Part shown: piece after piece, positions 78-20,000 of the stretch
Layout: each line of letters starts with the position of its first letter
Numbering within the stretch: the stretch's first letter is position 1
Origin: Lobosporangium transversale
Taxonomy: Eukaryota
Assembly (NCBI RefSeq): GCF_002105155.1
Contig: NW_019028996.1
Location: 726,915 to 746,914 of the forward strand
Direction: 5' to 3'
DNA: 20,000 nucleotides
The notes under the pieces: generated by a model
What the model was told of the DNA's origin: nothing
Databases searched by the model: none
What the model saw: the letters and a program-made list of their open reading frames with translations, nothing else
Program-made: the position numbers and the translations under genes

Positions 78-272
78 TGCAAGCGAAATCACTATAATAA
101 TTTTGTGCAACATTGTATTTCGCCCATATTTCTAGAGCATTCCTTGCAACAGGATATTAACTAGTATAAATAGGTCTACTTTTCTATCTAGTTCTGTAGC
201 ATGGTTCCCCCTGAATAAAGATACCTTTATTGCACCCTTAGATCCCCCTAGAACACTACCTTGACTTTTGCA
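78..272 (+). repeat. 5' LTR (195 bp)
   Basis: TGCAAGCG...TTTTGCA with TATAAATA and AATAAA motifs; 5 substitutions versus the 3' LTR by manual comparison. Confidence 0.96.
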
Positions 273-273
273 T

Positions 274-286
274 TGGTAGCAAAGGA
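274..286 (+). promoter_or_regulatory. Primer binding site, probably tRNA-iMet
   Basis: TGGTAGCAAAGGA directly after the 5' LTR; complementary to the ...GCUACCA 3' end of eukaryotic initiator Met tRNA (Ty1/Ty3 PBS also begins TGGTAGC). Confidence 0.75.
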
Positions 287-339
287 AACCACGACCACCC
301 CCAGAGAACTACAATTACCATTGAATTTCACCCCTCGCC

Positions 340-1260
340 ATGGAACACTTGAATAACGCCCTTTCGTCCATCGATCTTCCTCTGAACATTCGCGAAGCCA
401 TAGCTACTGCTTTTAATCAGGCCCTCTCTACTGCTAAAGTCAACGAAGCCGCTGAGAATGACCTAGCCAGAACCCTCGCCACGGTCCTAAAGCCACAGAA
501 GCCTACGCCTTACGAAGGAGCTATTAACGCTGTTGCAGCCTTAAACTTTGTCGACAGCCTGGAGGAGTATTACACTATTGTCACACTCACGCCATCCAAA
601 TGGGTTCGATACGCTGTCCTCAGTCTCAATGGCGAAGCCAAGGCATGGTGGAGAGATTCCGGGTTGAATCTCGATACACCTTGGGCTGACTTCCGTAAAG
701 CATTCCTCCGTCAGTTCACCCCTCCAGATTCTGCGAATGCAGCTCGCCGAGCGTTGGATAAACTTCGTCAGGGAAGGATGAGTGTGGCAGAATATACGAG
801 CAAGTTTAGAAGCCACCTACGTCTGGCTACAAATCTCGACAAAGACTCTGCTTTGCAAAAATACATGCTAGGCCTTGAGCCCGAAACAAGCAAGCAGGTA
901 AGACTTAGACAGCCAGAGACGTTGGACGATGCCATTGAGCAGGCGACCATTGTCCACAGTATTCTACATCCCATCGATGCCACCCCTGTATCCGCTACCC
1001 CGAACGCCTTATCACCCCATCATGAGAATAATTCTGGCCCTACACCAATGGATCTCGATAACATGAGAATGTTGGTTGCCAACCTGTACACCTCTCTCCA
1101 TCAGCAACGACCAAACAGAAACCACTCCAAGCCAAGCTCGCTACCCAAGCTCACAGCAGCTGAACGAGAACGTTGCGTTCGTGAGGGGCGTTGTTTCAGA
1201 TGCCGGAACCGAGGTCATAGAGCCTTTGTGCACAAATATAACATCCATGCCCCTTTCTGA
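340..1260 (+). CDS. gag: Gag (retrotransposon gag domain plus zinc knuckle)
   Basis: LNGEAKAWW...LRQGRMSVAEYTSKF capsid-like motifs, GPTPMDLD, and CFRCRNRGH knuckle whose last Cys is in the next frame. Confidence 0.92.
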   Translation: MEHLNNALSSIDLPLNIREAIATAFNQALSTAKVNEAAENDLARTLATVLKPQKPTPYEGAINAVAALNFVDSLEEYYTIVTLTPSKWVRYAVLSLNGEAKAWWRDSGLNLDTPWADFRKAFLRQFTPPDSANAARRALDKLRQGRMSVAEYTSKFRSHLRLATNLDKDSALQKYMLGLEPETSKQVRLRQPETLDDAIEQATIVHSILHPIDATPVSATPNALSPHHENNSGPTPMDLDNMRMLVANLYTSLHQQRPNRNHSKPSSLPKLTAAERERCVREGRCFRCRNRGHRAFVHKYNIHAPF

Positions 1261-2226
1261 TCACTCTATTGCTCCCACTGCATCTACTTCCTTACATCTA
1301 CTCTCTAAGTATTCACCTCATCCTGATCCCCATTCCCCTACTCATTCCTCATTGCTAAAAAACAATCCCCTCTCCGACCCTATTTTCCCCTCCACTGATC
1401 CTTTCACTGTTTCCACTTCACTCACTTCCACTCATTCATCTACCCCTAGTTCATCCAATCGCCACTCCCATTGTCGTAACGAAATTCGCCTTCAATCCTT
1501 CAGCCTTACCTATGACAAACATAAAAACTCTCGCCGACTCCTTACTTTCATTGGAGCAGTGAATGGTCGACCTGCGCGCATTCTTGTAGATGGAGGGGCC
1601 GAAGGCAATGTCATAAGTTCCTCTTTCTGCGAGAACACACATGTTCCGCTAATTGAGGGTAGACCCATTCCTGTCATTCTTCCCAACGGTACCGAGACAA
1701 TTGCTCAGCACACAGCCACGTTCACCCTCGCCCGCAACGCGTATCAGGATAAAATCAACGCCATTGTTTATCCTCTATCCAAATACGACCTAATTTTGGG
1801 TAAACCATGGCTGACGGATATCAACCCTCGCATCAATTGGCGAACAAATGATCTGCATTTTGAATACCAAGGTACCCCGGTCTTGTGGCCTTGCACTGGC
1901 ATCGACAGGAAGCCTAGACAGCGATCTTCCGTCATATCTGCTCTTAACTTCCTTACCGTTGCCTCGGAACCTGATGCCTCTGTATTCCTCGCCCAAGTTC
2001 GAGTTCCAGTACCTGTCTCTAGCAGTAGTTCTGAACTACCGGACTCTATCAAGCAAATCGTTCAAGTCGAATTCCCTGATGTCTTTCCTACAACGCTTCC
2101 TGATGGCCTTCCCCCTGACAGAGGTGATAGCATGCGTATAGAGACTGACCCTTATGCTGACCCACCTGTCCGACCTGTCATCAGATTGTCGATCGCTGAG
2201 CTTGATGAACTGAAGAAGCAGCTAAC
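1229..2226 (+). CDS. pol: Pol N-terminal part: aspartic protease and linker
   Basis: RILVDGGAEGNVIS catalytic motif and YDLILGKPWL; reading ends at the solo-LTR insertion (ELKKQL|). Confidence 0.88.
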
Positions 2227-2420
2227 TGCAAAAGTCAAGGTAGTGTTCTAGGGGGATCTAAGGGTGCAATAAAGGTATCTTTATTCAGGGGGAACTATGC
2301 TACAGAACTAGATAGAAAGTAGACCTATTTATACTAGTTAATATCCTGTTGCAAGGAATGCTCTAGAAATATGGGCGAAATACTATGTTGCACATAATTA
2401 TTAGAGTGATTTCGCTTGCA
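2227..2420 (-). mobile_element. Solo LTR of the same Gypsy family, inserted antisense in pol
   Basis: Reverse complement of the LTR, flanked by 5-bp TSD CTAAC (2222-2226, 2421-2425). Removing it restores ...[12 protein letters not shown] in frame. Confidence 0.95.
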
Positions 2421-5144
2421 CTAACTGATCTTTTACAAAAAGGATTAATCTCACCGAGCACCTCACCATACGGTGCTCCAGTCCTCTTTGTGAAGAAAAA
2501 GGATGGCTCGCTTCGAATGTGTGTTGATTATCGGGGCCTGAACAAGATCACAAAGAAAAACAGGTACCCCTTACCACGGATCGATGAATTGATCGACAGA
2601 TTCAGAACAGCTAAATGTTTTACCAAGCTGGATCTACTCTCGGGCTATCATCAAATGCGTGTCCATCCTGATGATAAACACAAGACCGCGTTCCGAACTC
2701 GCTATGGCCACTACGAGTTTAACGTCGTACCTTTCGGTCTTACAAATGCACCTGCAGCGTTCTCGACTATGATGCGTAACGTACTTGATCCACTTCTTGA
2801 TAAATGTGTTGTTGTGTATCTCGATGATATTTTAATTTACTCCGATAACGAGAAAGATCACTTAGAGCACATCCGAAAAGTACTCTCCCTCTTGCGTCAA
2901 GCTGGGCTTTATTGTAAATTATCCAAGTATTCCTTCATGCAGGAAGAGACTGAGTTCCTAGGCCATGTCATATCCAAGGATGGACTCAAGACGAATGGCG
3001 GACTTGTCAAGGCAATAAGGGAATGGCCAGTACCAACAACCCAACGACATGTGATGCAATTCCTTGGTTTGACTAATTTTTACCATCAGTACATTTCTCA
3101 TTACGCTGATATTGCTCTTCCCCTCACACAATTGTTAGGCTGCAATAAGGAATTCCACTGGGGAAAATCTCAACAAGACGCCTTTGAGACTTTGAAAAGA
3201 GCAGTGAGCTCAGCACCAGTTCTTAGGATATTCGATCCTGCCCTCTCTACAGCAGTCGAAACAGACGCTTCAGGCTTTGCAATTGGTGCTGTCTTGTTCC
3301 AGACGGACCAAAATGGTGAATCACGACCAGTAGCTTTTACTTCACGCAAGCTCAACCCAGCGGAACGCAACTATCCTACACACGAACAAGAACTGCTGGC
3401 TGTGGTGCATGCTCTGAAGACATGGCGATACTACCTTGATGGTTCTCACTTTGTCGTTTATACCGACCATGCCACTCTACAACATTTTCCTAGCCAGCCG
3501 AACTTGACTCGCAGACAAGCAAGATGGATGGAGTTGCTTCAAGAGTATGATTTCGTATTCAAGTATAAACCTGGTAAAGATAACGTCGTCCCTGATGCTC
3601 TTTCACGAAGACCGGACCTCAAGGACTTGGAGGCTACACCTACTACTTTGAACTCCTTGGTTATCAATCTAGACCCTGGCATTCGAAAACAACTAGCCAG
3701 TTGCTACCTACACGATCCAATTCTAGGTCCCCTCGTGCATCAGTATAAGGATGCCTCTACCCCGGATCGTTACTTCGTGGTAGATGGTCTACTCTGGATC
3801 AACGCTGGACAAGGCCCTCGCCTCTGCATACCCAAGGACGACGGACTCCGTTCACAACTCTTGCATGACGCTCACGACGCTCCTATATCAGGCCACTTGG
3901 GACTCGATAAAACGTACAGTAGCATGCGACGAACATATTTTTGGCCACGCATGGCGAGGGATATAAAAAAATACATTGCTTCCTGTGAGCAATGCCAGCG
4001 TAACAAGCCTTCACTAAAGCCTCCTGCAGGGCTTTTCCAACCTTTGGCAATTCCAAGCCAACGATGGGATACTGTAACAATGGACTTCATTGTCAAGCTT
4101 CCGAAGACAGCCAGAGGTTTTGACGCGATTACGGTCTTTGTGGACAAACTGTCCAAGCAAGTTCATTTCTGCGCTAGCCGAACTACCGACACTGCCTCTG
4201 ATGTTGCACGACTCTTTTTCGACAATGTTTTTAGACTGCACGGCATGCCTCGGACAATTGTGTCAGATAGAGATTCACGTTTCACCGGCAAGTTCTGGAC
4301 AACGTTGATGAAGCTCATGGGCACCAAACTTAACATGTCTACTGCCTTCCTTCCACAATCAGACGGACAAACAGAGCGCGCCAACAGAACATTAGAAGAA
4401 ATGCTCCGCTCTTACATATCGTACAAGCAAAACGACTGGGATCTTTTACTGCCTATGATGGAGTTCGCATACAACAACTCTGTCAATCCTACGACAGGCT
4501 TCTCCCCATTCTTTCTGAACTATGGTCACCATCCACTAGTCCCTGGATCTCTTTTAAAGCCACCTGATACCAATGTTCCGGCTGTCAGTGATTTTGTTCG
4601 AACCCAGTCGATGAATTTGGCGCTAGCTCAGGATGCCATCATCGAAGCGCAGAATAGGCAAAAGGCCCAAGCGGACAAAACTCGCAGGCCTGCTACGTTT
4701 GCTGTGGGTGACATGGTGCTCTTAAGCTCGGAAAACATCTCTGTCGCGGGACATAAAAATAGGCCGTCGCAGAAACTGGAACCTGAGTACATAGGCCCTT
4801 ACAAGATCATTTCGAAGGTCAATGAAAATGCCTACAAGCTGGAACTACCGCCTGACATGCATCAACATCCAGTCTTTAATGCCGATCTGCTTCGCCCCTA
4901 TATTGAGTCACCTCGTGAATTCGGCGACCGCTTACCACCACGCCCTGCCCCCGAGCTTGTAGATGGAGAAGAGGAGTATGAAGTCGACAAAATCATTGAC
5001 TTCAAAATGTTTGGCAAAACTCCTAAGTGGCTCGTTCTTTGGAAAGGCTATCCATTAGATGAAGCCACTTGGGAAACAAAATCTTCGCTCGCAAACGCTA
5101 AAGAGGCGCTTGCCGTCTTTGAGGCTTCAAGAAAAACAAGATAA
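2421..5144 (+). CDS. pol: Pol C-terminal part: RT, RNase H, integrase, chromodomain
   Basis: YLDDILIYS (RT); [10 protein letters not shown] (RNase H); HDAPISGH...CEQC (HHCC); MDF/SDRD/TERAN (DDE); GPY motif; EYEVDKII...LVLWKGY...TWE chromodomain. Confidence 0.96.
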
Positions 5145-5157
5145 TAGGTTTCTTCAT

Positions 5158-5168
5158 GACGGGAAGGA
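5158..5168 (+). promoter_or_regulatory. Polypurine tract
   Basis: GACGGGAAGGA immediately before the 3' LTR. Confidence 0.7.
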
Positions 5169-5363
5169 TGCAAGCGAAATCACTATAATAATTTTGTGCA
5201 ACATAGTATTTCGCCCATATTTGTAGAGCATTCCTTGCAACAGGATATTAACTAGTATAAATAGGTCTACTTTTCTATCTAGTTCTGTAGCATGGTTCCC
5301 CCTGAATAAAGACACCTTTATTACACCCTTAGATCCCCCTAGAACACTACCTTGATTTTTGCA
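5169..5363 (+). repeat. 3' LTR (195 bp)
   Basis: Direct repeat of 78-272, followed by TSD CGCGT. Confidence 0.96.
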
Positions 5364-5816
5364 CGCGTCTCCTAGTTTTCTAGCTCCGTGAATAGCTCCA
5401 AGGATTCTAGAAGAGCTATAAACCAATAACCAAGACTTATAGTGCCAAGGAACCTTGCAATAAGATTGCACCAGATATCTTCCTCGGATCCTGTGTATTA
5501 AGTTAACTCAACACTTGAAGTTCCGCATATGGTAAAAGTCCTTAGGAAATATTTGAGTAAGCTTTATTTAGAGTTCTTGAAGCGCGTCTCCGCTTCAGTC
5601 AAACAAGTATAAATATGATAGATTTGTAACATAGTAAACCTCAGTCTGCAATAAAACTATTCTTGAATCTCCTAAGCTCATTTTTGTTCCTAAATCACTT
5701 ACCTTCTCTTGCAATTGTCCTGTCAGTCCTTGACGGTAATTGCACGCGAGGTTGATACGGGTATATTTAGATCCATTCTGGCAGTTCAAGAATACATCAG
5801 ATCGAGCAGTGCTCCT

Positions 5817-6086
5817 ATTCGAACCATTCGAATCGAATTCGAATAGATATCAGGATTCGAATGCTATTCGAACCGCTCGAATGATTCGAGCCATTCGAAC
5901 CGTTCGAATGATTCGAACCATTCGAACCATTCGACATTCGAACCATTCGACATTCGAACCGTTCGAATGATTCGAACCATTCGAACCATTCGACATTCGA
6001 ACCGTTCGAATGATTCGAACCATTCGACCCTCGAATCATTCGAACCATTCGAACCATTCGACACTCGAACCATTCGAACCATTCGA
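5817..6086. repeat. hAT left subterminal repeat array (CCATTCGAA-like units, TTCGAA palindromes)
   Basis: Many tandem and inverted TTCGAA-containing 7-9-mers; likely transposase binding sites by analogy to Ac/Hermes. Confidence 0.85.
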
Positions 6087-6269
6087 TACACGATAGGAAA
6101 TGGTAATTCTAAACTTGTGTTTGTAGTTTTCATTATGTTTCATCTCCTGCCTTATTTCTCTTTCCTTCTTTTTCCTCTTTTGCCTTTCTTCCTGTGGTTC
6201 CCCGAAATTTAATCAAATAAAAGACTACCCCTTTTAACTTATTCATGCATGATTTGGTTTGAACTTGTT

Positions 6270-6830
6270 GCTCTTTTTTTTTTTTTTTTCCTAATTTCCT
6301 AATTCCCACGCCAATTAGTAGTGTTATCTTAATCTTTTTCTTTCCGTTTTTTTTTTTTTCTTTCATTTACTGATTATTTTCTTCCATTTACTCATTCTTC
6401 TCTTCCATTTACTCATTCTTCTCTTCCATTTACTCATTCTTCTCTTCCATTTACTCATTCTTTTCTTTCATTTAATCCTTATTTTTATTCATCTACTCCT
6501 TATTTTCTTTTATTTACTCATTATATTCTTACATTTACTCATATTTTTACTCTTCATCTCATTCTATTTATTCTTATTCTGTTCTCTCTTCACTTTTCTT
6601 ATTCTTATTATTTTCTTTTTCTCATTCTTGTCTTTTTATTTTCTCACTCTTTTCTTGTCTTTTCTTTTTCTCACTCTTTCTTGTCTTTTCTTTTTCCTTT
6701 TCATTTCATTTCTTTTATTATTTTATTTATTTTGTTTCTCTCTCGTCTTTCTTGTCTTTCGTTACAGTTCCATCCCTCTCATCTGCTTTGTTTTTCGTGT
6801 CTTTTATTTTTCCTATTTCCCTTGCAATTA
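6270..6830. repeat. Pyrimidine-rich low-complexity tract including a 21-bp tandem repeat
   Basis: Poly-T runs; TTCCATTTACTCATTCTTCTC repeated about 4 times from 6382. Confidence 0.8.
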
Positions 6831-6842
6831 CTGTTTGAGAAA

Positions 6843-9517
6843 ATGACAAAGAGCAGCCGACGCCGTATTGCAACTTCTGAAAGCGAGGAGGAAGAGCATG
6901 AAGAAGAGGTAAATATTAACTACTTTGACAACATACTGTGACTGTTAAGAAAGATAGTTAACCTTAAAAACTTTTTAACGGTTCTATGACACTTTGATGG
7001 ATTTAAGGTTAATGATGTGAGTAATATGTCTATGTCGACCACTTTCGACATCACTGACGGTAGCATGGGTACGGAAAGCATGGGAAGTGTCAGTATCAGT
7101 AGCAAGAAAGGCACCCGAGTTTGGGGGTGGGCCATTAAAAACAAATGGGCTGAACGCGTTGAAACAAAAAAAGGCGCAGTCATACGCTGTCGTTTCCCTG
7201 GCTGCAAGATGGAATATACGTCAAGTACGATGACAACCAGTGGAATCAATTCACATTTGGCTAATAAGCACCATATTAGAAAAGATAGCCACGTGAATGA
7301 TGGTAGCCTCTCCCGGCAAGGCCCATTGGATGTAATGTTTTCTTCTTCTCCAAGGGTATTTGACCCTACAAGATTCGATGATTTGCTTGTGCGTTTTGTC
7401 GTTACGACGAAGGAGCCATTCGCTGTTGTAAAGAGTGCAGCTTTTCAAGAGCTTCTAAATCATGCAACAATGGCCGCAATGGCTCAAGTCAAGCTCCCCT
7501 CAGATGATACCATGGCAAACAAGGTAGCTCTCCTTTTTCTTCTACTCCACTTTTTTTGGCTTTATTTTTTTATTATTTATCTATTATTATCATCTTTATT
7601 TATTTCTACGTTATTACTTTCCCTCCACTGGAGCCTAACAAAGTTTACTAATTTGAAATAGACGAGACGAAAATATGATGATATGGAACAAGAAGCGATT
7701 GCCTTATTTGAAGGCATCAATAAGATTTCATTGACTGCTGATAGCTGGACAAGTCCTTTTCAGGACGACTTCTTAGGAGTCACGGCTCATTGGATCGACA
7801 AGGATTGGCGCCAAAAAGAGCTAGTGATAGGGTTTGAGCCTCTACTCGGAATGCACACAGGCGAGATGCAAACGTGTTATACAATACTGACTCAAACCTT
7901 TGAGGAGGGCTCAACTATCACGCGCACCCCAGGCGCCAAGACGCCAAGCCCAAGTGCCAAGACACCAAGCCCCAACCCTATCAATTATCAGTATAAATAG
8001 TCCACTACGTTATAGCCAAATAAAGTATCCTTTGACCTTCGATTCCACCTAAGATCACCTTTGATTGTTACTATTTACACGAGAACCTCGCCGAAGCTCT
8101 CGTCAGTGTTATTAAGCGCTTTAAAATTGGCGATAAGCTCCAAAGCATCACTACCGATAACGCATCAAACATGACCAAAATGGTGCGAGAAGTTGTGAAT
8201 CATCCCGAAGCAGTTGAATGGTAAACAATTGTACTACTGAACTAACTTTGGCTTCTATAATAGTTACATGTCTCTAACTTTGGTATTTAAAAAACTACGA
8301 TTAGGCCACTCATAGATAACCTGTACCATATACCATGCCTTGGTCATATTATAAACCTGGCTGTACAAGCAATGCTAGGTCCTAACGGCTTAAATGATCC
8401 AGCCCTTGAGAATGACAACGGCTACTCTGACGATAGTGGGGACGAAGACACAATTGGGTCGATGGAAGTAACGCTAAGCACATTGCAGAAGCTGAGGAAA
8501 GGCATCATGAAGATCAGGCAAGTATTTCGATATGATTATGATAGCAAATAACATGGGTGACAGGAAACTCAGCTAACCATCGGTTACATTTACCACTTGC
8601 TGTGTAGATCATCACCGCAAAGGATGTATCAGTTTGGCCGTGTTTGTGATATTGTGAAGAGCCCAAAGCTTGAGTTGATAAGGGACAACAGAACACGATG
8701 GAACTCTACTTCCACAATGGTTGAAAGAGCAATAACTCTAAAAGATGCTTACCAGTCTATGTGTAAGAACGAAGCTATCCTAGCGCCATACATTCTGAAG
8801 GATGAGGAATGGCTATATCTTCAAAAGCTCCAGTTGTTGCTTAGTCGATTCGTCGCTATCACTAACATCGTGTCTTCCAGCGTGGGTTATCCGACGATTA
8901 ACCGAGCAATGTCCGTATACAACTTAATGATCGATCATTTAGAAGAGTTTATTGAAGAAGAAAAAGACCCCTCACTTAACCAGGCGGCAAGTCAGGGATT
9001 ACAAAAGCTTCTGAACTATTATTCTAAAACAGATACCACCTCGGTTTATGCAGTAGCCACTGCCATGGATCCAAGAATGCGATTTAACTGGTGGGAGGTA
9101 AATGACTGGGGTGTATACATCGAAAGCAGCAAAAATATGGTGAAAGAGGTATGGGAAAAAGAATACAAAGGAAAAGAAGGCCCCGCCCAAGTGCCTGCTG
9201 ACCAAGAGTATGAAATGAAGCTCTATGGAATCAGTACGCAAGCTGGAGAGCTTGAAGAGTATGTCCGTGAAGGAAGTTCGCTAGTTGCCAGCAAGCAGGA
9301 GCCTCCAGAGTTGGTGCACTGGCGCTCGCAGAATGAACGCTGGCCCAATTTAGCAAATATGGCACGAGACTACCTCGCTATACCTGTGACATCGACCCCA
9401 GCTGAACGTTGTTTCTCCCAGGCTAAGTTCATTATGTCCGCTGAGAGAAATAGTCTTCTCCCTACAACGATCCAACGATTAGTAGTTTTGGATTCTTGGT
9501 TGAAAGAGATGTCTTGA
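6843..9517 (+). pseudogene. hAT transposase (BED finger, DDE, dimerisation domain), 4 predicted introns, interrupted by a solo LTR
   Basis: Predicted exons 6843-6908, 7008-7523, 7662-8220 (minus LTR 7867-8079 and one TSD), 8305-8517, 8608-9517 join in frame. Motifs: CRFPGC...HLANKH, TADSWTS, TTDNASN, CLGHIINL, TRWNST, TSTPAERCFS. Confidence 0.88.
7867..8079 (+). mobile_element. Solo LTR (213 bp) of a second LTR-retrotransposon family
   Basis: TGCAAA...TTTACA ends, 5-bp TSD CGAGA (7862-7866, 8080-8084), TATAAATA and AATAAA. Removal restores HTGENLAEAL. Confidence 0.88.
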
Positions 9518-9527
9518 TTGAGACATA

Positions 9528-11155
9528 CACTATCATGCAAAACTGATTCAATAATTCATTCCCATGTGCATTTCTTTTTTTCATTCCTAGAAACCGTATA
9601 TGCATACACCACTCATACTTTGGTTTAATAAAGCTCCCGTCTTCTTCTACGTCCTAGTGATGCGTTGTGACATTAGCTTGTCTCATTTGAATAGCTAATG
9701 ACTTTTTTGTTCATGCAGGTCATTGAATCAGTTTCACATGTGGTCTAAAATGTTGCCCATGGCAACTTTTGGACGTCATTTAATGCCAGTAAAAAAAGGA
9801 CTTTTCTCTCTTTCCTTTATGAACACTTGCTTAACTCTTAACTATACCTTCACAGAATATGAGACCCACTCCACAAAGGAAAGTCAACGAAGCCAGGAGG
9901 TTAATGATGGGAGGCATGTCTACTAGAGAAACTGCTGCTAGTGTTGGTATATCAATAGCGACGGCCACCAGGATCTATGCACATAATAAGGAGTACATGC
10001 CAGTCAATAAAGGCGGTCGACCAAGGAAAGTACCTAGAGGTATCATGCAGTATCTTAAGGTGAACATGAAACGAGGTACACTCAAGTCTGCAGTTGAGGC
10101 CACCGCCAGAGCCAACCAGCTCATACCAGCGGCTGTTTCTGAGACCACCGTTAGACGACGGCTCAAGGAGTTAGGATTGACAGCAAAGAGGCGTGTACAT
10201 AAGCCAGCTTTACGTCGACGACATATTAAAGCTCGTTTGCATTTTATCAAAAAGTATAAGGAATGGACTCTGGAAGATTGGAAAAAGGTTATTTGGTCAG
10301 ATGAATCGAAAATAAACCGAATCTGCTCTGATGGCGTGCAGTGGATCTGGGGCGACAATCCGGGACGCCTCACTCGCAGGTCGGTGCAAGGCACTGTCAA
10401 GTTTGGGGGTGGTAATGTTAAAGTGTGGTCATGCTTCTCATGGCACGGACCTGGATACATTGCAAAGATTGACAATAATATGGACGCACAACTTTACATC
10501 AAACTACTGCAGGAGGATCTACAGATGTCGCTTGGTGACTGGGGCCTAACTAAAAGCGATATCGTCTTTCAGCACGACAATGACTCGAAGCACACGGCGA
10601 AGATTGTTAGGAAGTATTTGGAGTCAGTACATCTGACAGAAGAGGAAGGTACACTTCTAGAGTGGCCAGCACAATCCCCTGACCTCAACCCTATTGAACA
10701 CATGTGGGCAGAATTGGATAGGCGGCTCTCTAGGTATCCGGAGCGAGCTAAGAGCTGTGATGAACTATGGGAGCGAATATCGGTTGAATGGTACAGGATC
10801 CCAGTGGACTTCTGCCGCAAACTCATCATAGATATCCATAAGAGACTCCAAGCTGTCAGTGATGCCCATGGTTGGAATACTATCTATTGATGTAAGGTTA
10901 TGGCTCACAAAAGAATAAAGATCTTTGGCCACCGAATGGGCACATGTGAAACTGATTCAATGACCTGAATGAACAAAAAAGCCATTAGCTATTCAAATGA
11001 GACAAGCTAATGTCACAACGCATCACTATGACGTAGAAGAAGACGGGAGCTTTATTAAACCAAAGTATGAGTGGTGTATGCATATACGGTTTCTAGGAAT
11101 GAAAAAAAGAAATGCACATGGGAATGAATTATTGAATCAGTTTTGCATGATAGTG
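9528..11155 (+). mobile_element. Tc1/mariner DNA transposon with 215-bp TIRs
   Basis: TIRs 9528-9742 and 10941-11155 (few mismatches); TA TSD at 9526-9527 and 11156-11157. Confidence 0.95.
9859..10890 (+). CDS. Tc1-like transposase (intact, 343 aa)
   Basis: N-terminal HTH, GRPRK, WSDESK, QHDNDSKH, WPAQSPDLNPIEHMW. Confidence 0.95.
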   Translation: MRPTPQRKVNEARRLMMGGMSTRETAASVGISIATATRIYAHNKEYMPVNKGGRPRKVPRGIMQYLKVNMKRGTLKSAVEATARANQLIPAAVSETTVRRRLKELGLTAKRRVHKPALRRRHIKARLHFIKKYKEWTLEDWKKVIWSDESKINRICSDGVQWIWGDNPGRLTRRSVQGTVKFGGGNVKVWSCFSWHGPGYIAKIDNNMDAQLYIKLLQEDLQMSLGDWGLTKSDIVFQHDNDSKHTAKIVRKYLESVHLTEEEGTLLEWPAQSPDLNPIEHMWAELDRRLSRYPERAKSCDELWERISVEWYRIPVDFCRKLIIDIHKRLQAVSDAHGWNTIY

Positions 11156-11159
11156 TATA

Positions 11160-11506
11160 CAGTGCTCCTATTCGAACCTTTCGAATCGAATTTCACTGAT
11201 ATCGAATTCGATTCGAATGAGGTAAGCTCAAATTCGATTCGAATTCGATTAGATAACAAAATTCGAATGCTATTCGAATGGTTCGAATGATTCGAGCGAA
11301 CTATTGGCACAATAGTAAATGATAATTTTAAACTTTTTTTTTTATTTTTTTTTGATTGGGTGTAAAGTACAAGGACCATACTTTCGCTACGCGTAACCAG
11401 AGGCCCTATTCGAACCATTCGAACCATTCGAATCGAACCAGGATATGGCTTATTTGAATCGATTCGAATTTATCACGATTCGAATTCGAATCGAATAGGA
11501 GCACTG
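11160..11506 (+). mobile_element. Non-autonomous hAT element (MITE-like, 347 bp), same TIRs as the host hAT
   Basis: CAGTGCTCCTATTCGA...TCGAATAGGAGCACTG. 8-bp TSD GACATATA: right copy 11507-11514, left copy split by the Tc1 (GACATA 9522-9527 plus TA 11158-11159). Confidence 0.9.
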
Positions 11507-11640
11507 GACATATATAGTTTTCTAAATAAGAGTAAAAGTATCTCTCAAAACTAGCAAATCAAATAAAACTTTTTACAATACAACTCTGAACCAGGGTTAT
11601 GAACTATATCACCCCTACCACTTCACAATTCAAACCACCA

Positions 11641-11807
11641 CGCTCCTATTCGAATCATTCGAACCATTCGACACTCGAACCATTCGAACCATTCGAACCA
11701 TTCGACACTCGAACTATTCGAACCATTCGAACCATTGGAATCGAACCAGGATATGGCTTATTCGAAGCTATTCGAATTCGAACCGTTCGATTCGAATAGG
11801 AGCACTG
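11641..11807. repeat. hAT right subterminal repeat array and TIR
   Basis: CCATTCGAA-type repeats ending in TTCGAATAGGAGCACTG; GAACCAGGATATGGCTTAT is shared with the MITE right end. Confidence 0.85.
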
Positions 11808-13694
11808 AGTAGGTGTAGCCTCCGAGTCCTTGAGGTCCGGTCTTCGTGAAAGAGCATCAGGGACGACGTTATCTTTACCAGGTTTATACTTGAATACGAA
11901 ATCATACTCTTGAAGCAACTCCATCCATCTTGCTTGTCTGCGAGTCAAGTTCGGCTGGCTAGGAAAATGTTGTAGAGTGGCATGGTCGGTATAAACGACA
12001 AAGTGAGAACCATCAAGGTAGTATCGCCATGTCTTCAGAGCATGCACCACAGCCAGCAGTTCTTGTTCGTGTGTAGGATAGTTGCGTTCCGCTGGGTTGA
12101 GCTTGCGTGAAGTAAAAGCTACTGGTCGTGATTCACCATTTTGGTCCGTCTGGAACAAGACAGCACCAATTGCAAAGCCTGAAGCGTCTGTTTCGACTGC
12201 TGTAGAGAGGGCAGGATCGAATATCCTAAGAACTGGTGCTGAGCTCACTGCTCTTTTCAAAGTCTCAAAGGCGTCTTGTTGAGATTTTCCCCAGTGGAAT
12301 TCCTTATTGCAGCCTAACAATTGTGTGAGGGGAAGAGCAATATCAGCGTAATGAGAAATGTACTGATGGTAAAAATTAGTCAAACCAAGGAATTGCATCA
12401 CATGTCGTTGGGTTGTTGGTACTGGCCATTCCCTTATTGCCTTGACAAGTCCGCCATTCGTCTTGAGTCCATCCTTGGATATGACATGGCCTAGGAACTC
12501 AGTCTCTTCCTGCATGAAGGAATACTTGGATAATTTACAATAAAGCCCAGCTTGACGCAAGAGGGAGAGTACTTTTCGGATGTGCTCTAAGTGATCTTTC
12601 TCGTTATCGGAGTAAATTAAAATATCATCGAGATACACAACAACACATTTATCAAGAAGTGGATCAAGTACGTTACGCATCATAGTCGAGAACGCTGCAG
12701 GTGCATTTGTAAGACCGAAAGGTACGACGTTAAACTCGTAGTGGCCATAGCGAGTTCGGAACGCGGTCTTGTGTTTATCATCAGGATGGACACGCATTTG
12801 ATGATAGCCCGAGAGTAGATCCAGCTTGGTAAAACATTTAGCTGTTCTGAATCTGTCGATCAATTCATCGATCCGTGGTAAGGGGTACCTGTTTTTCTTT
12901 GTGATCTTGTTCAGGCCCCGATAATCAACACACATTCGAAGCGAGCCATCCTTTTTCTTCACAAAGAGGACTGGAGCACCGTATGGTGAGGTGCTCGGTG
13001 AGATTAATCCTTTTTGTAAAAGATCAGTTAGTGCAAGCGAAATCACTCTAATAATTATGTGCAACATAGTATTTCGCCCATATTTCTAGAGCATTCCTTG
13101 CAACAGGATATTAACTAGTATAAATAGGTCTACTTTCTATCTAGTTCTGTAGCATAGTTCCCCTGAATAAAGATACCTTTATTGCACCCTTAGATCCCCC
13201 TAGAACACTACCTTGACTTTTGCAGTTAGCTGCTTCTTCAGTTCATCAAGCTCAGCGATCGACAATCTGATGACAGGTCGGACAGGTGGGTCAGCATAAG
13301 GGTCAGTCTCTATACGCATGCTATCACCTCTGTCAGGGGGAAGGCCATCAGGAAGCGTTGTAGGAAAGACATCAGGGAATTCGACTTGAACGATTTGCTT
13401 GATAGAGTCCGGTAGTTCAGAACTACTGCTAGAGACAGGTACTGGAACTCGAACTTGGGCGAGGAATACAGAGGCATCAGGTTCCGAGGCAACGGTAAGG
13501 AAGTTAAGAGCAGATATGACGGAAGATCGCTGTCTAGGCTTCCTGTCGATGCCAGTGCAAGGCCACAAGACCGGGGTACCTTGGTATTCAAAATGCAGAT
13601 CATTTGTTCGCCAATTGATGCGAGGGTTGATATCCGTCAGCCATGGTTTACCCAAAATTAGGTCGTATTTGGATAGAGGATAAACAATGGCGTT
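11808..13694 (-). pseudogene. pol: Inverted duplicate of Gypsy pol segment 1757-3644 (end of protease, RT, RNase H)
   Basis: Reverse complement of 1757-3644. Same protein apart from L>S near the end, and the same solo-LTR insertion with a 1-bp deletion. Confidence 0.95.
13032..13224 (+). mobile_element. Duplicated copy of the solo LTR (193 bp)
   Basis: TGCAAGCG...TTTTGCA flanked by GTTAG TSD, at the same site in pol as 2227-2420. Confidence 0.93.
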
Positions 13695-13695
13695 T

Positions 13696-14140
13696 GATAA
13701 GTAGGATGGGTTTTTTTGTGAAAAAGTGGAAAAAGTGACTGAGAGTGAGAAAGAAGACTGCGGGACAAGTGCTTGTTTCGATCTTTTCTCTTCAGCCTTG
13801 TCTTCTTTTTATACTTTTTTCACGCCTCTCGGACTCTCGGGAGAGAGGGTGAACGGTAACCCAAAAAGGAATCATTATCCAAATCGGGTCTCATCCGGAA
13901 ACTCCTAGATTGTTTCAGATTGAGTCAGTTATGACGTAAGATCTAAAATTAATCTAAGTATAGATTACAAATAATTTATCCGAACGGTTAGACTAAAAAA
14001 GGAAGGTCTAAGTCCGAAAAAATCCTAGGATATATGTATCATTTCCGTGGTACGCGTCGACCTAGCAAACAGGTTTATTTGGAGCCAGCAAACCAGTTAT
14101 TTGTGGCTTTCTACTCCTTAACTAGGGTCACGTGACAAAA
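13696..14140 (-). repeat. Penelope-like terminal repeat (pLTR) copy 1, 5'-truncated element
   Basis: About 445-bp unit essentially identical at 14284-14728, 17863-18307 and 18455-18900. Confidence 0.88.
13750..13808 (-). ncRNA. Type I hammerhead ribozyme, copy 1
   Basis: Minus strand: AAAGAAGAC-AA-GG-CUGAAGA-GAAAAGAUC-GAAA-CAAG-CA-CUUG-UC/CC-GCA-GUCUUCUUU. Complete core, three stems, GUC cleavage triplet (predicted cut between 13764 and 13763). Confidence 0.85.
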
Positions 14141-14283
14141 TTTATTTTTAGGTATCTATTTTTAGGGTCTATTTTTAGGGTTTTTTAGGGTTTTTTAGGG
14201 TTTTTTAGGGTTTTTAGGGTTTTTTAGGGTTTTTTAGGGTTTTTAGGGTTTTTTAGGGTTTTTTAGGGTTTTTTAGGGTTTTT
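14141..14283 (+). repeat. Telomere-like repeat tract, mostly pure T5-6AGGG
   Basis: About 10 tandem TTTTT(T)AGGG units after two degenerate units. Confidence 0.85.
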
Positions 14284-14337
14284 GATAAGTAGGATGGGTT
14301 TTTTTGTGAAAAAGTGGAAAAAGTGACTGAGAGTGAG

Positions 14338-14396
14338 AAAGAAGACTGCGGGACAAGTGCTTGTTTCGATCTTTTCTCTTCAGCCTTGTCTTCTTT
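14338..14396 (-). ncRNA. Type I hammerhead ribozyme, copy 2
   Basis: Identical to 13750-13808. Confidence 0.85.
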
Positions 14397-14728
14397 TTAT
14401 ACTTTTTTCACGCCTCTCGGACTCTCGGGAGAGAGGGTGAACGGTAACCCAAAAAGGAATCATTATCCAAATCGGGTCTCATCCGGAAACTCCTAGATTG
14501 TTTCAGATTGAGTCAGTTATGACGTAAGATCTAAAATTAATCTAAGTATAGATTACAAATAATTTATCCGAACGGTTAGACTAAAAAAGGAAGGTCTAAG
14601 TCCGAAAAAATCCTAGGATATATGTATCATTTCCGTGGTACGCGTCGACCTAGCAAACAGGTTTATTTGGAGCCAGCAAACCAGTTATTTGTGGCTTTCT
14701 ACTCCTTAACTAGGGTCACGTGACAAAA

Positions 14729-14837
14729 TTTATTTTTAGGTATCTATTTTTAGGGTCTATTTTTAGGGTTCTATTTTAGGGTTTTTTTAGGGTTATTTTT
14801 AGGGTTTTCTTTTAGGGTTATTTTTAGGGTTAGGGTC
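14729..14837 (+). repeat. Element-encoded degenerate telomere-like tract
   Basis: TTATTTTTAGGG/TCTATTTTTAGGG variants; same sequence at 18901-19009. Confidence 0.8.
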
Positions 14838-14991
14838 AAGGAGGGTCAGCTCTGGCCTATACCATGAACCTGAGAAAACTCCTAAAAAATCTAAAGAAAA
14901 CTTACTAAGTCTAAAAAACCGGACCTATTTTGTCGGGGATGAGGGCTAGTTATAATATAAGATACAGAAGAGATCTCATTGAACTAGTCAT

Positions 14992-16497
14992 CTACAATCG
15001 ACTCCTTATTGGGGCGGATTGGAGAATCTTTTTATTATAGGTGTTCAACTGGTTGCGCAGGTTGGAGCCTTTATAAATTATCCATGTGGTTTGTGTATTC
15101 TCATAACGGGCAGGTTTGAGGGTATGGATATCTCGTAGAATCATACGTCCAAACTGTTCAAGTTTGTCACGTCCAGGGATGTTATGGAGGAACATTTTTT
15201 TGATAATAGTATCATTTTTCTGAGACGAGGGTGCCGGGTACAAAAGAGTATTCCGTTCATCGTATGAGTGTAATCTGAGTTGATTGTTGATTACATGTGA
15301 GGGGTAGTTTCTATTAAGAAGATGTTGGGCAAATTGTGCTGTGGCATGGGTGTGGAAAGAAGACTGACTAGAGTTTCTAATTAGTCTTTGGTTTTCACCA
15401 TTAATCCAGTTAAAAACATATTTCCTAGGGTAGTATGTATCTGGATCAGTGTATAGGTGTTTATTAACGGGTTTGTCGAAAGGAGCAATAGTAAATCGGG
15501 TTGGACTAGTATTGTTATCGACAGAAATAAGAAGGTCGAGCATAACTACTTGTTGACCATTGTTACCATGGTCGATAGTGATATTAAGACTTTGACAAGA
15601 GGCATAAATCTGATGAAGTTTAATGTCAATGTATGGTTTCAAAAGATTGAATGTCTCTTTAGACCAGGGAAGGTTATCATGTTTGGTAGTTCTGATTATG
15701 GCAAAGCCATCATCTATATACCGGAACAGGGTGATGTCAAAGAAATCGAGTTTATAGAAAAACATTGGGGAATTAGTGTCAACTGGAAGGTTGTCAGGAA
15801 AAACTCCATGGAATTGTTGTTGTTTCTCTACGCAGCATGCAAAGAGGCGGGCTATGGTGGGTGCCATGGGAGTTCCCATAGCTAAGCCTTTGACTTGTCT
15901 GTAATTATTTGTAAGGTCAGAGACAAGGCAGTTCTTATTAACCCATTCTGCGAGTTTCAGACATATTTGGATTTCATAATTGTAAGAATGATTGCAGAAG
16001 TAGTGTAGTATGGTTTTTCTGGCTTCTTCAAAGTCGATGTTACCATACATGTTGATGACGTCGAAAGCTGCTAATGAGTAATGGCAGTAAGGATCAAAGT
16101 CAAAATTTTCTAGATAACGTATTAGTGTGGGGGTGTCGGGAAGATCTCTAGGGAACTCATTAAGTAGAGGGCGCAGGTTTCTATCGACAAACTGACTAAT
16201 AGTGTGTGTTATCCAAGGGAAAGAGGGGACTATAGGTCTAGCACCGGGTGGTGACTTATGTATTTTAGGTAAAAGATACATAACTGGGACAGTATAGAAG
16301 TTAGGATTGGTTCTAACATTATCTCTTATTAGTTTAGCTTCTGAGAGTAATTTATTTTTAATTCTAAGAGGACTAAGATTGACTATAGAAAAGAGTGAGT
16401 TTATCATATTGTCAATGGAGAACGAAGGGCACGGGACATAACAGGAAGTATCTGTTAGAAGTTTCGTAGTCTGGGATGTATACCAGTCTAGGTCCAT
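14992..16497 (-). CDS. Penelope-like reverse transcriptase, no endonuclease domain
   Basis: LPKIHK...ARPIV, AFDVINMYGNI, YRQVKGLAMGTPMAP, RYIDDGF, FDKPVN. Ends after NLRNQL with no GIY-YIG. Its N-terminus (LNKGVNF, ADK) lies upstream across frameshifts. Confidence 0.92.
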   Translation of the reverse strand: MDLDWYTSQTTKLLTDTSCYVPCPSFSIDNMINSLFSIVNLSPLRIKNKLLSEAKLIRDNVRTNPNFYTVPVMYLLPKIHKSPPGARPIVPSFPWITHTISQFVDRNLRPLLNEFPRDLPDTPTLIRYLENFDFDPYCHYSLAAFDVINMYGNIDFEEARKTILHYFCNHSYNYEIQICLKLAEWVNKNCLVSDLTNNYRQVKGLAMGTPMAPTIARLFACCVEKQQQFHGVFPDNLPVDTNSPMFFYKLDFFDITLFRYIDDGFAIIRTTKHDNLPWSKETFNLLKPYIDIKLHQIYASCQSLNITIDHGNNGQQVVMLDLLISVDNNTSPTRFTIAPFDKPVNKHLYTDPDTYYPRKYVFNWINGENQRLIRNSSQSSFHTHATAQFAQHLLNRNYPSHVINNQLRLHSYDERNTLLYPAPSSQKNDTIIKKMFLHNIPGRDKLEQFGRMILRDIHTLKPARYENTQTTWIIYKGSNLRNQLNTYNKKILQSAPIRSRL

Positions 16498-16811
16498 AAT
16501 AGTGAGTCCTAAGTTTTTTATCAGCAGGGAATGATAATTTATTCGAGGTCATTAGATTTCTGTAGGATTTTTTTTTTTTTTTTATTAATTATGGTTTGTA
16601 GCATCGAACAGAACATTAGCTAGATTAATATCTAGTTTATTAATATTCCTACAAAGTTGGTTACGCAATTTCTTTAGTTCTGAGCTCAGAACAACATAGT
16701 TGGGAGGTTTATGTATATTGAAATTGACTCCTTTATTTAAGACTTGAAGAATATCATGGGGGATGGATTGTACGGAAGACATATTGTTGACTCCGACAAA
16801 ATCATGTAAAT

Positions 16812-17838
16812 CTACTTTTTTTGTTTCTGAGGGGATGGGGCTTTTTTCACGGGGCCTTTTCCTTTCTTTACATGGGTGGTTTTCTTGGAGGACGTTGGGG
16901 GACCACCTTTCTTCTTGTCTTTCTTCGCCATCGATGGGCCTTTTGGTCCTTTGTATTTGTTGGTGTCGTTCTGTCGACGTGATGGCTTGGGTTTGCTTGG
17001 CTTCTTCTTCGAGGCGTCCTTCTTGGTATTCTAGAGGGAAAGTAGAGTTGATCTTAGAATAGATTATATTTAATCGTGGAGCAAACCAAAGGGAAACAAT
17101 TATCTTGAATACCTTTAATCCAAGATTTAATTGCTGGAATTCTGCAGTGGCTCGTAATACTTGCACTTGAGCAGAAAACTCAATAGCAGTGGCACGAATC
17201 AGCTTGTAGGTGAAGTCTTTACCCAGATTATTCAGATGAGAATTGTTTTCAACGGCCACAAGGGCAGATGAAAGGGTGTCCGCTAGCTGTCTGGGGAGGG
17301 TGTCATTGAGTTCACTTTGGCATTGTTGGATGATATTTGCTTTGTCAGCTTTAATGGCCGATACTAACAAATTGTCAAACGAAGTGCTAAGTGTAGCAAG
17401 GACGTCCTTTGACAGGGTAACACGGTTATTGTTGACAGTAAGATGTCCCCAATAGCCTAGTTGTGTCTTAGCGTTGACTTCACGCAGAATCTTCTGAGCC
17501 ATTCGGATTTTATCCAAAAGAATGGCCGCCTTATTGACAAATTTGCTTAAGATGTCTGCGGCAACCCTGTCAGTCATCGTTCCCTTTTTGAAAGAGGGAA
17601 GATAGGAACCAGGGTTCAGAGAGGTGTCACTATTCCCAATATGATTATTGAGACGAGCGACGAGCTGCTCGAGGGTGGGAAGGTCTGCCGGTGCAGTCCC
17701 TCCTCCCATCTCGGCATCGGCATCGATCATAGCCTGACCTGGAACTTGTTGACCTGGGGTGACTTGGAAGACATCCTGGTTTCCACGGGCAGAGCTTGAC
17801 GATGAGGAGGGGCCGGGGGCAGCGTGAGTATTGACCAT
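16812..17838 (-). CDS. PLE ORF1 (predicted spliced, 314 aa, helical with Lys-rich tail); unspliced frame continues to 16585
   Basis: ATG at 17838 just downstream of the pLTR. Predicted intron 17112-17031 (GTATTC...CTAAG...CTCTAG) gives NTKKDASKKKPSKPK...KQKK-stop. Confidence 0.7.
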
Positions 17839-17916
17839 CTTGAGAGGAACTTGAGGGTTTTTGATAAGTAGGATGGGTTTTTTTGTGAAAAAGTGGAAAA
17901 AGTGACTGAGAGTGAG

Positions 17917-17975
17917 AAAGAAGACTGCGGGACAAGTGCTTGTTTCGATCTTTTCTCTTCAGCCTTGTCTTCTTT
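17917..17975 (-). ncRNA. Type I hammerhead ribozyme, copy 3 (in the ORF1 leader)
   Basis: Identical to copy 1; predicted cut about 90 nt upstream of the ORF1 ATG. Confidence 0.85.
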
Positions 17976-18307
17976 TTATACTTTTTTCACGCCTCTCGGA
18001 CTCTCGGGAGAGAGGGTGAACGGTAACCCAAAAAGGAATCATTATCCAAATCGGGTCTCATCCGGAAACTCCTAGATTGTTTCAGATTGAGTCAGTTATG
18101 ACGTAAGATCTAAAATTAATCTAAGTATAGATTACAAATAATTTATCCGAACGGTTAGACTAAAAAAGGAAGGTCTAAGTCCGAAAAAATCCTAGGATAT
18201 ATGTATCATTTCCGTGGTACGCGTCGACCTAGCAAACAGGTTTATTTGGAGCCAGCAAACCAGTTATTTGTGGCTTTCTACTCCTTAACTAGGGTCACGT
18301 GACAAAA

Positions 18308-18454
18308 TTTATTTTTAGGTATCTATTTTTAGGGTCTATTTTTAGGGTTCTATTTTAGGGTTTTTTTTAGGGTTATTTTTTAGGGTTTTTTTTAGGGTTA
18401 TTTTTAGGGTATAGGGTTTTTTTATTTTTAGGGTTATTTTTAGGGTTATTTTAG
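18308..18454 (+). repeat. Telomere-like tract (TTATTTTTAGGG-rich) between tandem elements
   Basis: Starts like 14729-14837, then diverges into additional TTATTTTTAGGG units. Confidence 0.8.
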
Positions 18455-20000
18455 GATAAGTAGGATGGGTTTTTTTTGTGAAAAAGTGGAAAAAGTGACT
18501 GAGAGTGAGAAAGAAGACTGCGGGACAAGTGCTTGTTTCGATCTTTTCTCTTCAGCCTTGTCTTCTTTTTATACTTTTTTCACGCCTCTCGGACTCTCGG
18601 GAGAGAGGGTGAACGGTAACCCAAAAAGGAATCATTATCCAAATCGGGTCTCATCCGGAAACTCCTAGATTGTTTCAGATTGAGTCAGTTATGACGTAAG
18701 ATCTAAAATTAATCTAAGTATAGATTACAAATAATTTATCCGAACGGTTAGACTAAAAAAGGAAGGTCTAAGTCCGAAAAAATCCTAGGATATATGTATC
18801 ATTTCCGTGGTACGCGTCGACCTAGCAAACAGGTTTATTTGGAGCCAGCAAACCAGTTATTTGTGGCTTTCTACTCCTTAACTAGGGTCACGTGACAAAA
18901 TTTATTTTTAGGTATCTATTTTTAGGGTCTATTTTTAGGGTTCTATTTTAGGGTTTTTTTAGGGTTATTTTTAGGGTTTTCTTTTAGGGTTATTTTTAGG
19001 GTTAGGGTCAAGGAGGGTCAGCTCTGGCCTATACCATGAACCTGAGAAAACTCCTAAAAAATCTAAAGAAAACTTACTAAGTCTAAAAAACCGGACCTAT
19101 TTTGTCGGGGATGAGGGCTAGTTATAATATAAGATACAGAAGAGATCTCATTGAACTAGTCATCTACAATCGACTCCTTATTGGGGCGGATTGGAGAATC
19201 TTTTTATTATAGGTGTTCAACTGGTTGCGCAGGTTGGAGCCTTTATAAATTATCCATGTGGTTTGTGTATTCTCATAACGGGCAGGTTTGAGGGTATGGA
19301 TATCTCGTAGAATCATACGTCCAAACTGTTCAAGTTTGTCACGTCCAGGGATGTTATGGAGGAACATTTTTTTGATAATAGTATCATTTTTCTGAGACGA
19401 GGGTGCCGGGTACAAAAGAGTATTCCGTTCATCGTATGAGTGTAATCTGAGTTGATTGTTGATTACATGTGAGGGGTAGTTTCTATTAAGAAGATGTTGG
19501 GCAAATTGTGCTGTGGCATGGGTGTGGAAAGAAGACTGACTAGAGTTTCTAATTAGTCTTTGGTTTTCACCATTAATCCAGTTAAAAACATATTTCCTAG
19601 GGTAGTATGTATCTGGATCAGTGTATAGGTGTTTATTAACGGGTTTGTCGAAAGGAGCAATAGTAAATCGGGTTGGACTAGTATTGTTATCGACAGAAAT
19701 AAGAAGGTCGAGCATAACTACTTGTTGACCATTGTTACCATGGTCGATAGTGATATTAAGACTTTGACAAGAGGCATAAATCTGATGAAGTTTAATGTCA
19801 ATGTATGGTTTCAAAAGATTGAATGTCTCTTTAGACCAGGGAAGGTTATCATGTTTGGTAGTTCTGATTATGGCAAAGCCATCATCTATATACCGGAACA
19901 GGGTGATGTCAAAGAAATCGAGTTTATAGAAAAACATTGGGGAATTAGTGTCAACTGGAAGGTTGTCAGGAAAAACTCCATGGAATTGTTGTTGTTTCTC
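18455..20000 (-). mobile_element. Next tandem copy of the Penelope-like element (pLTR, 3' UTR, RT C-terminal half; runs off window)
   Basis: Repeats 14284-15828 at about +4172; RT C-terminus 19164-20000 encodes the same protein. Confidence 0.92.
18510..18568 (-). ncRNA. Type I hammerhead ribozyme, copy 4
   Basis: Identical to copy 1. Confidence 0.85.

Follow-up and report, generated by a model that had tools for sequence, protein, structure and literature searches.

Junctions at a putative hAT-induced chromosome break capped by PLE copies in Lobosporangium transversale

Analysis of a 20,000-nt stretch of Lobosporangium transversale DNA (NW_019028996.1, 726,915-746,914; hereafter the window) identified a hAT element that has lost its TSD and whose right TIR is bluntly joined to an inverted, nearly identical copy of part of a neighbouring Gypsy element. 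This copy ends, with a short microhomology, directly on the natural 3' end of a Penelope-like element (PLE), beyond which lies a polarised array of PLE copies and T5-6AGGG repeats. The likeliest single history, to which we assign somewhat better than an even chance, is the full chain of a hybrid hAT insertion, a dicentric chromosome, a break or resection, and healing by the PLE.

Layout of the window and the ends of the hAT

The window is nearly all mobile DNA. Its order from left to right is a Gypsy element, 443 bp of other DNA, the hAT, the inverted partial Gypsy copy and the PLE/T5-6AGGG array (Table 1). The Pfam content of the Gypsy comprises gag, protease, reverse transcriptase (RT), RNase H, integrase and a chromodomain, and the named closest relatives of its pol region are from Entomortierella.

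Table 1. Coordinates of the features identified in the window
Feature	Position	Strand	Basis or remark
Complete, decayed Ty3/Gypsy chromovirus	78..5363	+	LTRs 78-272 and 5169-5363; TSD CGCGT
Left (source) arm of the duplication, covering pol from protease to RNase H	1757..3644	+	Alignment of arms
Antisense solo LTR of the Gypsy's own family, within pol	2227..2420	-	TSD CTAAC; marker in both arms
Putative 8-bp hAT target CACCTACT	3637..3644	+	Its reverse complement follows the hAT right TIR
Orphan hAT left flank AGATCGAG, half of the presumed original TSD	5799..5806	+	Occurs once in the window
hAT: terminal repeats of 16 bp, subterminal repeats rich in TTCGAA, and a transposase that is interrupted and contains introns	5807..11807	+	Pfam, end comparison
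213-bp TG...CA insertion in the hAT transposase	7867..8079	.	TSD CGAGA, from flanks
Tc1/mariner element, at TA within the left TSD of the MITE	9528..11155	+	PF13358, PF01498
hAT MITE nested in the hAT, same orientation as host	11160..11506	+	8-bp TSD GACATATA, left copy split by Tc1
Junction 1, hAT right TIR bluntly joined to inverted copy	11807..11808	.	Flank comparison
Inverted copy of 3644 back to 1757	11808..13694	-	2 differences in 1888 nt
Junction 2, non-telomeric DNA to PLE 3' end	13693..13698	.	Shares TT, or TTGAT if an additional T is allowed
First PLE copy, 5'-truncated, 3' unit only	13696..14180	-	445/445 nt identical to next unit
Type I hammerhead-like motif in PLE 3' unit	13750..13808	-	CUGAAGA...GAAA...GUC
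Ten pure T5-6AGGG repeats (8 T6, 2 T5)	14181..14278	+	Differ from the element's degenerate tract (14730-14832)
Full-length endonuclease-less PLE	14284..18454	-	ORF1 17838-16585, RT about 16548-14992, 3' unit
Second PLE unit, 5' pseudo-LTR of the full-length PLE	17863-18454	-	Repeat comparison
Further PLE copy, continuing past the window	18455..20000	-	1100/1100 nt identical to previous copy

The hAT transposase, with its C-terminal dimerisation domain, was recognised by the Pfam profiles PF05699 (E 7.5e-16) and PF14372 (E 9.6e-7). Its closest named relatives are from Podila, Mortierella, Linnemannia and Lunasporangiospora (Mortierellaceae), at 61-72% identity. The element is likely non-autonomous. 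Because its transposase is broken by the 213-bp insertion, which is itself likely a solo LTR of another family, the enzyme that acted on it likely came from another copy, in trans.

A 16-bp end, CAGTGCTCCTATTCGA, is common to all four hAT-family ends in the window, two belonging to the host element and two to the nested MITE. The MITE serves as an internal control for the definition of the ends and also supplies a second left end. Since it keeps its TSD, the end of the element is known to the base and the family is seen to make 8-bp duplications. The flanks of the host element disagree, with AGATCGAG on the left and AGTAGGTG on the right (11808-11815), and thus do not form a TSD. Compared in direct orientation, the MITE and its host are 88% identical over 66 nt at their left ends and 94% identical over 65 nt at their right ends. 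A double-Ds structure was ruled out, as the MITE is co-oriented with the host; an inverted hAT copy may conceivably have been present in the lost distal DNA.

Metagenome contigs were scanned for the 16-nt TIR, and none of the 89 loci retrieved had the subterminal TTCGA density of a true end (at most 5, versus 34 and 51 at the real hAT ends). No target preference was drawn for the family, since all 89 loci look like chance matches.

The inverted duplication and its junction with the hAT

The arms of the duplication pair in two blocks (1757-2291 with 13160-13694, and 2289-3644 with 11808-13163) and are separated by a spacer of 8163 nt. When aligned globally (1888 versus 1887 nt), they differ by one substitution, at 3628/11824, and by the loss of one G from a G-run at 2288. 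The left arm was identified as the source because the element around it is complete and still flanked by its TSD. The right arm derives from this same Gypsy copy, and not from a sibling, since it shares both a private solo LTR and damage in pol. The solo LTR carries four variants that are absent from both flanking LTRs and present in the right-arm copy (13032-13224). For pol, 30 homologs were aligned out of 120 listed; the region as a whole has eight substitutions at residues with at least 90% agreement among the aligned homologs, and four substitutions of this kind are carried by both arms, including H>Y at 2565 (25/25 homologs agree) and C>Y at 2928 (29/29).

The divergence between the arms (1/1887 substitutions) is lower than that between the two flanking Gypsy LTRs, which differ at 5/195 positions (Fisher p=4e-5), and that between the Tc1 TIRs, which differ at 3/216 (p=0.004). 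Unless the arms have been made uniform by gene conversion, these fewer differences indicate that the duplication is far more recent than either the Gypsy or the Tc1. The substitution between the arms is a TCG/TTG transition at a CpG, in a linker position of pol where proline is the commonest residue (22/52 homologs), with leucine in five and serine in three. This gives a weak hint that TCG may be the older state; little weight is placed on this direction because none of the five LTR differences is a CpG transition.

Fungal subterminal regions often swap and duplicate sequence, according to the available portion of PMC8381367, and the inverted segment might instead represent a separate recent Gypsy copy, either a retrotransposed daughter or a subtelomeric duplication. 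Adjacent deletion, translocation or hAT-hAT recombination would then have brought the hAT end onto this copy, with the PLE truncation as an independent event. Such a copy must descend from the very element that lies 2 kb from the hAT, after that element had decayed, and must then have been struck by the end of that same hAT; a target within the locus is by far the simpler explanation, and we consider a separate copy very unlikely.

The inverted copy begins at the first base past the right TIR. No microhomology was found at this junction, where the hAT end reads ...GCACTG and the source strand ...CAAAGT. The chance of a join falling on the TIR base is of the order of 1 in 4000, by simple arithmetic with two right ends and the 8.2-kb spacer. 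Template switching and fold-back repair are expected to use microhomology and have no reason to choose the base at a TIR end; with no microhomology and a spacer of this length, both were ruled out at junction 1. The simple reading is that transposase strand transfer made the junction, and a transposase-made join to the locus's own DNA is well supported. The original prediction had noted a hAT without a TSD and a right TIR precisely fused to a near-identical inverted copy that includes the solo LTR. Both points are confirmed by the mismatched flanks, the single occurrence of AGATCGAG in the window, the exact TIR end and the two differences between the arms.

To identify the reactions that yield the observed order, single two-ended reactions were enumerated for either left end, either right end, both target chromatids and both orientations. 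The model assumes that the centromere lies to the left, and one-ended and two-step routes, as well as lost distal elements, lie outside it. Within this model, none of the eight one-chromatid two-ended reactions produced the order, and a one-chromatid inversion of this type was ruled out. The order was obtained in 4 of the 64 two-chromatid reactions, all of them hybrid and all predicted to give a dicentric plus an acentric product. In each of the four, the outer right end comes from one chromatid and its partner, the left end of the host or of the MITE, from the other; the modelled target is the chromatid that supplied the left end. In the accessible parts of the sources, hybrid element insertion is defined (PMC2775673) and credited to P elements (PMC3470690), and sister-chromatid fusion and breakage are known for Ac/Ds (PMC3239180). 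In standard Ac/Ds transposition, as set out in PMC3239180, the competent ends belong to a single chromatid, and transposition between sister chromatids requires directly oriented ends. The present locus is not a classical Ac/Ds case, since the MITE is co-oriented and no directly oriented pair is present. A reciprocal junction of a left end with the other copy of the 8-bp target is absent from the whole 20,000 nt of the window; this absence refutes nothing, because the junction is predicted on the acentric product, which would be expected to be lost.

Standard end pairing would suffice for a second route to the same structure. The hAT would make a normal inverted hop of about 2.2 kb into 3637-3644 and then recombine ectopically with an unmoved copy on the other chromatid or the homolog, producing a dicentric that is capped by the PLE. 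The sequence outcome is identical, and hybrid insertion and ectopic recombination are described as hard to separate in PMC2775673. However, neither an element nor a footprint was found at 3637-3644 of the left arm, across which the pol frame (2367-5144) is open, so two rare events would have to occur before the chromatids part. We regard this route as unlikely.

A bridge breaking at random would be expected to leave an arm longer than 1.9 kb, and a hybrid insertion would consequently need a mid-bridge cut or later erosion. A route with no bridge explains the short arm without such a cut: in a one-ended transfer of the right end to the same or the sister chromatid, or in short aborted copying, about 1.9 kb would be copied, released and capped by the PLE. 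One-ended reactions are, moreover, not covered by the enumeration. This route would presumably require unusual uncoupled chemistry, and replication after transfer of one strand in cis would again generate a dicentric; we judge this route to be as improbable as the hop followed by recombination.

The junction with the PLE and the terminal array

Past 13694 the inverted copy meets TGATAAGTAGG, which is the shared start of all four PLE 3' units. These units start at 13696, 14284, 17863 and 18455, in every case at GATAAG, and the preceding bases are AGGGTTTTT at 14284 and 17863, TTTTAG at 18455 and GGCGTTT at 13696. The source strand at the junction reads GGCGTTGATTT, so that its overlap with the PLE tail is TT, or TTGAT if an extra T is allowed. 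Attachment of the PLE to telomeric repeats is seen at 14284 and 18455 and is absent at 13696, and no TTAGGG-type repeats lie between the inverted copy and the PLE at 13694. The earlier proposal of an abrupt stop at 13694, with the PLE joined without intervening telomeric repeats, was confirmed and can be refined by the TT or TTGAT overlap.

That the PLE is attached through its natural 3' end to DNA that is not telomeric is well supported. Priming of reverse transcription on a broken or resected end is favoured because the join is at this natural end, and DNA-level microhomology capture is the lesser reading. In the latter, junction 1 would have formed as described above, and the cap would have been copied as DNA from another PLE-bearing end via TTGAT by break-induced replication, or the array would be internal. 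Five of the 271 TT sites on the source strand continue with GAT, which gives the TTGAT match a p of about 0.02 given TT, and break-induced replication builds MoTeR arrays according to the available text of 10.1101/845669. However, the join falls on the natural 3' end found in 4/4 units and contains one T in excess of a clean TTGAT join. The pure T5-6AGGG tract and the single polarity of the array fit a true chromosome end. We rate these DNA-level and internal alternatives slightly below the already very unlikely separate Gypsy copy.

Both junctions are known from one assembled sequence, which contains homopolymer-type indels, and both fall on the edges of repeats, places at which assembly graphs fork. 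A wrong repeat path or a chimeric read could have made one or both of them. However, fold-back chimeras lack an 8.2-kb spacer and would presumably not respect both the TIR end and the PLE end; a misassembled path would presuppose that a second copy of this decayed Gypsy, joined to a hAT end, really exists, and the arms differ by a transition at a CpG. Misassembly is the least probable of the explanations considered.

According to PMC8557442 and PMC5537684, telomeric overhangs are the sites to which endonuclease-less (EN-minus) PLEs attach, and in PMC13159263 telomeric repeats are present on the inner side of 12/13 copies of Coprina-1_Alen, whereas here the innermost PLE abuts Gypsy pol. The direct join is for this reason the most unusual feature of the locus. 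No fungal PLE joined directly to non-telomeric DNA was reported in the literature covered, which was mostly without subscription papers and supplements; Gladyshev and Arkhipova 2007 and Arkhipova et al. 2017 may describe non-telomeric attachments.

The PLE RT aligns with PLE-type RTs (LPKIHK, MGT and YIDD) and ends where its relatives P0027 and P0046 have GIY-YIG, which identifies the element as EN-minus. The region of the DKN motif is split over two frames at an A-run, and this reflects either an assembly error or damage. The Atlas neighbours of the RT are rotifer-rich RT/HTH_animal clusters (0.94-0.96). No Pfam match was obtained for ORF1 or the RT, and no Atlas match for ORF1. No relatives of the RT were found in viral contigs or, by sequence, in PDB, and there was no named Coprina or Athena sequence among the 57 matches.

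The PLE units show zero substitutions (445/445 nt twice, and 1100/1100 nt), which would be in line with their being as young as, or younger than, the duplication. The hammerhead-like motif of the 445-bp 3' unit is identical in 4/4 units, and cleavage is predicted after 13764, 68 nt from the element end. The sequence accommodates the core and helices I and III, with a helix II of only 2 bp; the fold differs from the minimum-energy fold (z -0.22), and there was no Rfam match within 13500-19200. Hammerheads whose helix III is long have been described from fungal PLEs (PMC4209133). A prokaryotic promoter/terminator scan, otherwise irrelevant, picked up the helix III hairpin.

The PLE ORFs face away from the G-rich end. 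The G-rich repeat strand and the polarity of the PLE copies suggest a telomere at the right, with the window stopping inside the array. The reported telomere repeat of Mortierella alpina is T6AG3. The T5-6AGGG tract is likely a telomerase addition to the truncated first PLE copy, and we read the full-length and further copies as having come after it. The host appears to keep telomerase.

Proposed history and related systems

In the favoured history, transposase acting in trans would have paired the right end of the hAT with a left end from the other chromatid, and the hybrid end pair would have entered this second chromatid at 3637-3644, with a dicentric and an acentric as products. The dicentric would have broken, or its end been resected, 1.9 kb beyond the hAT junction, and everything once distal to the hAT would have been lost. 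PLE RNA would then probably have been reverse-transcribed, primed on the non-telomeric end, to form a cap. Telomerase would have extended the truncated first PLE copy, to which more PLE copies would subsequently have been added.

The original prediction, in which the right end inserted into the sister chromatid, the resulting bridge broke about 1.9 kb away and the PLE capped the break, was supported in part, by the transposase-like hAT junction, by a target within the same Gypsy copy and by the use of the PLE natural 3' end. Its two-chromatid step agrees with the enumeration, in which only hybrid reactions fit and a dicentric results. The bridge and its breakage are less secure, as other routes lead to the same sequence, and the partner may have been a homolog. 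We infer the dicentric bridge, and do not read it from the DNA, because an identical structure would arise from a local hop with subsequent recombination or from the transfer of a single end.

Each step of the proposed history has precedent. The available parts of PMC2775673, PMC3239180 and PMC3470690, on hybrid insertion of P elements and on Ac/Ds breakage, describe a similar exact joining of an end to nearby DNA, loss of the TSD, and a predicted inverted duplication with a dicentric. In contrast to those systems, the L. transversale locus is a natural allele with ends in standard orientation and no double-Ds; here the transposon end forms the inner edge of the duplication, and a retroelement array replaces the distal arm.

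The PLE is similar to Athena and Coprina (PMC8557442, and PMC13159263 for Coprina-1_Alen). The likeness includes an RT without GIY-YIG, an upstream ORF, a pseudo-LTR, a candidate hammerhead-like motif, a telomere-complementary tract, and tandem, polarised, 5'-truncated copies among telomeric repeats. The ORFs of Coprina-1_Alen likewise face away from the G-rich end (PMC13159263, in part).

In the accessible part of 10.64898/2026.07.09.737500, HeT-A/TAHRE were added at 7/32 ends after dicentric breaks in Drosophila, and this addition of telomeric retrotransposons is the nearest functional precedent. Healing by HeT-A/TART/TAHRE resembles the present case in that a telomeric retroelement is placed on a non-telomeric end derived from a dicentric. 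The Drosophila case is, however, experimental and concerns non-LTR elements in a telomerase-less insect, whereas the present locus involves a PLE, an apparent telomerase and a break tied to a resident hAT (same source, in part). The MoTeRs of Pyricularia/Magnaporthe also form arrays of telomeric retroelements in fungi, next to duplications and healed breaks, but, unlike this PLE, insert into telomere repeats and cause the breaks (10.1101/845669 and PMC8381367, in the text available). The term 'inverted duplication' does not occur in the accessible text of either source, nor 'dicentric' in that of 10.1101/845669. The literature covered, mostly without subscription papers and supplements, contained no natural case of the whole combination and no report of a telomeric PLE in Mortierellaceae. 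The surprise is limited, since the locus is one allele in one assembly and every step is precedented.

Tentatively, and at a little less than an even chance, we interpret the locus as a natural, base-resolved fungal McClintock sequence, in which hybrid-end hAT breakage was followed by capping in which the PLE, and not telomerase, came first, on 2-5 nt of non-telomeric DNA, with telomerase and further copies building a new telomere afterwards. The locus suggests that hAT hybrid-end breakage occurs in nature and is not confined to alleles that are engineered or of double-Ds type, and that chromosome ends of early-diverging fungi may be lost and rebuilt in this way. EN-minus PLE RTs are the closest retroelement relatives of telomerase, according to the available portion of PMC8557442. 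A PLE joined to retrotransposon coding DNA suggests priming on ordinary broken ends, as with HeT-A, despite a seemingly active telomerase. If this interpretation is true, EN-minus PLEs would act as enzymes that heal breaks in general and, at newly formed ends, win out over telomerase.

Insertions nested in the hAT element

The hAT element contains a hAT MITE, and a Tc1/mariner element is integrated at a TA within the left target-site duplication (TSD) of that MITE. Read directly from this nesting, the order of insertion is hAT, then MITE, then Tc1/mariner. The hAT transposase is interrupted by a 213-bp TG...CA insertion, which probably represents a solo LTR from another family. Upstream of the transposase lies a low-complexity pyrimidine-rich tract (6270-6830), which contains a 21-bp tandem repeat of about nine copies.

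Features located in the window
Feature	Position	Strand	Remark
Left TSD of hAT MITE	9522-9527 + 11156-11159		Interrupted by Tc1/mariner
Right TSD copy of hAT MITE	11507-11514
213-bp insertion	7867-8079		TSD CGAGA
Hammerhead-like motif, one per PLE unit	13750-13808	minus
	14338-14396	minus
	17917-17975	minus
	18510-18568	minus

The Penelope-like element (PLE) array

The hammerhead-like motif was identical in sequence across all four PLE units in the window, with a helix II of 2 bp and a near-palindromic helix III; Rfam returned no match to it. The ORF1 end (16510-16600, minus strand) carries VLNKGVNF, which we take to resemble a PLE-like N-terminal motif. The frame changes at A-runs in the DKN region (minus strand). 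ORF1 and the reverse transcriptase may form a single frame or be joined through a frameshift, and assembly error is another possible source of the frame changes. The tract at 14181-14278 consists of T6AG3, with some T5AG3 units, and is likely a telomere repeat; TTAGGG is common among fungi, and T6AG3 is unusual by comparison.

The Gypsy source and the inverted arms

Within 1200-1260, the Gypsy gag ends shortly past a truncated zinc-knuckle-like motif, CFRCRNRGH, and overlaps the protease in a different frame, consistent with either decay or a frameshift site. The arms differ by a sole substitution (3628/11824, a TCG/TTG transition), 17 bp from the junction of the hAT right TIR with the inverted copy, which could reflect chance, a repair error or homolog polymorphism. 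As the arms (1757-3644 and 11808-13694) are inverted and near-identical, the 8.2-kb spacer should be able to flip through recombination, which would yield two isomers within a population.
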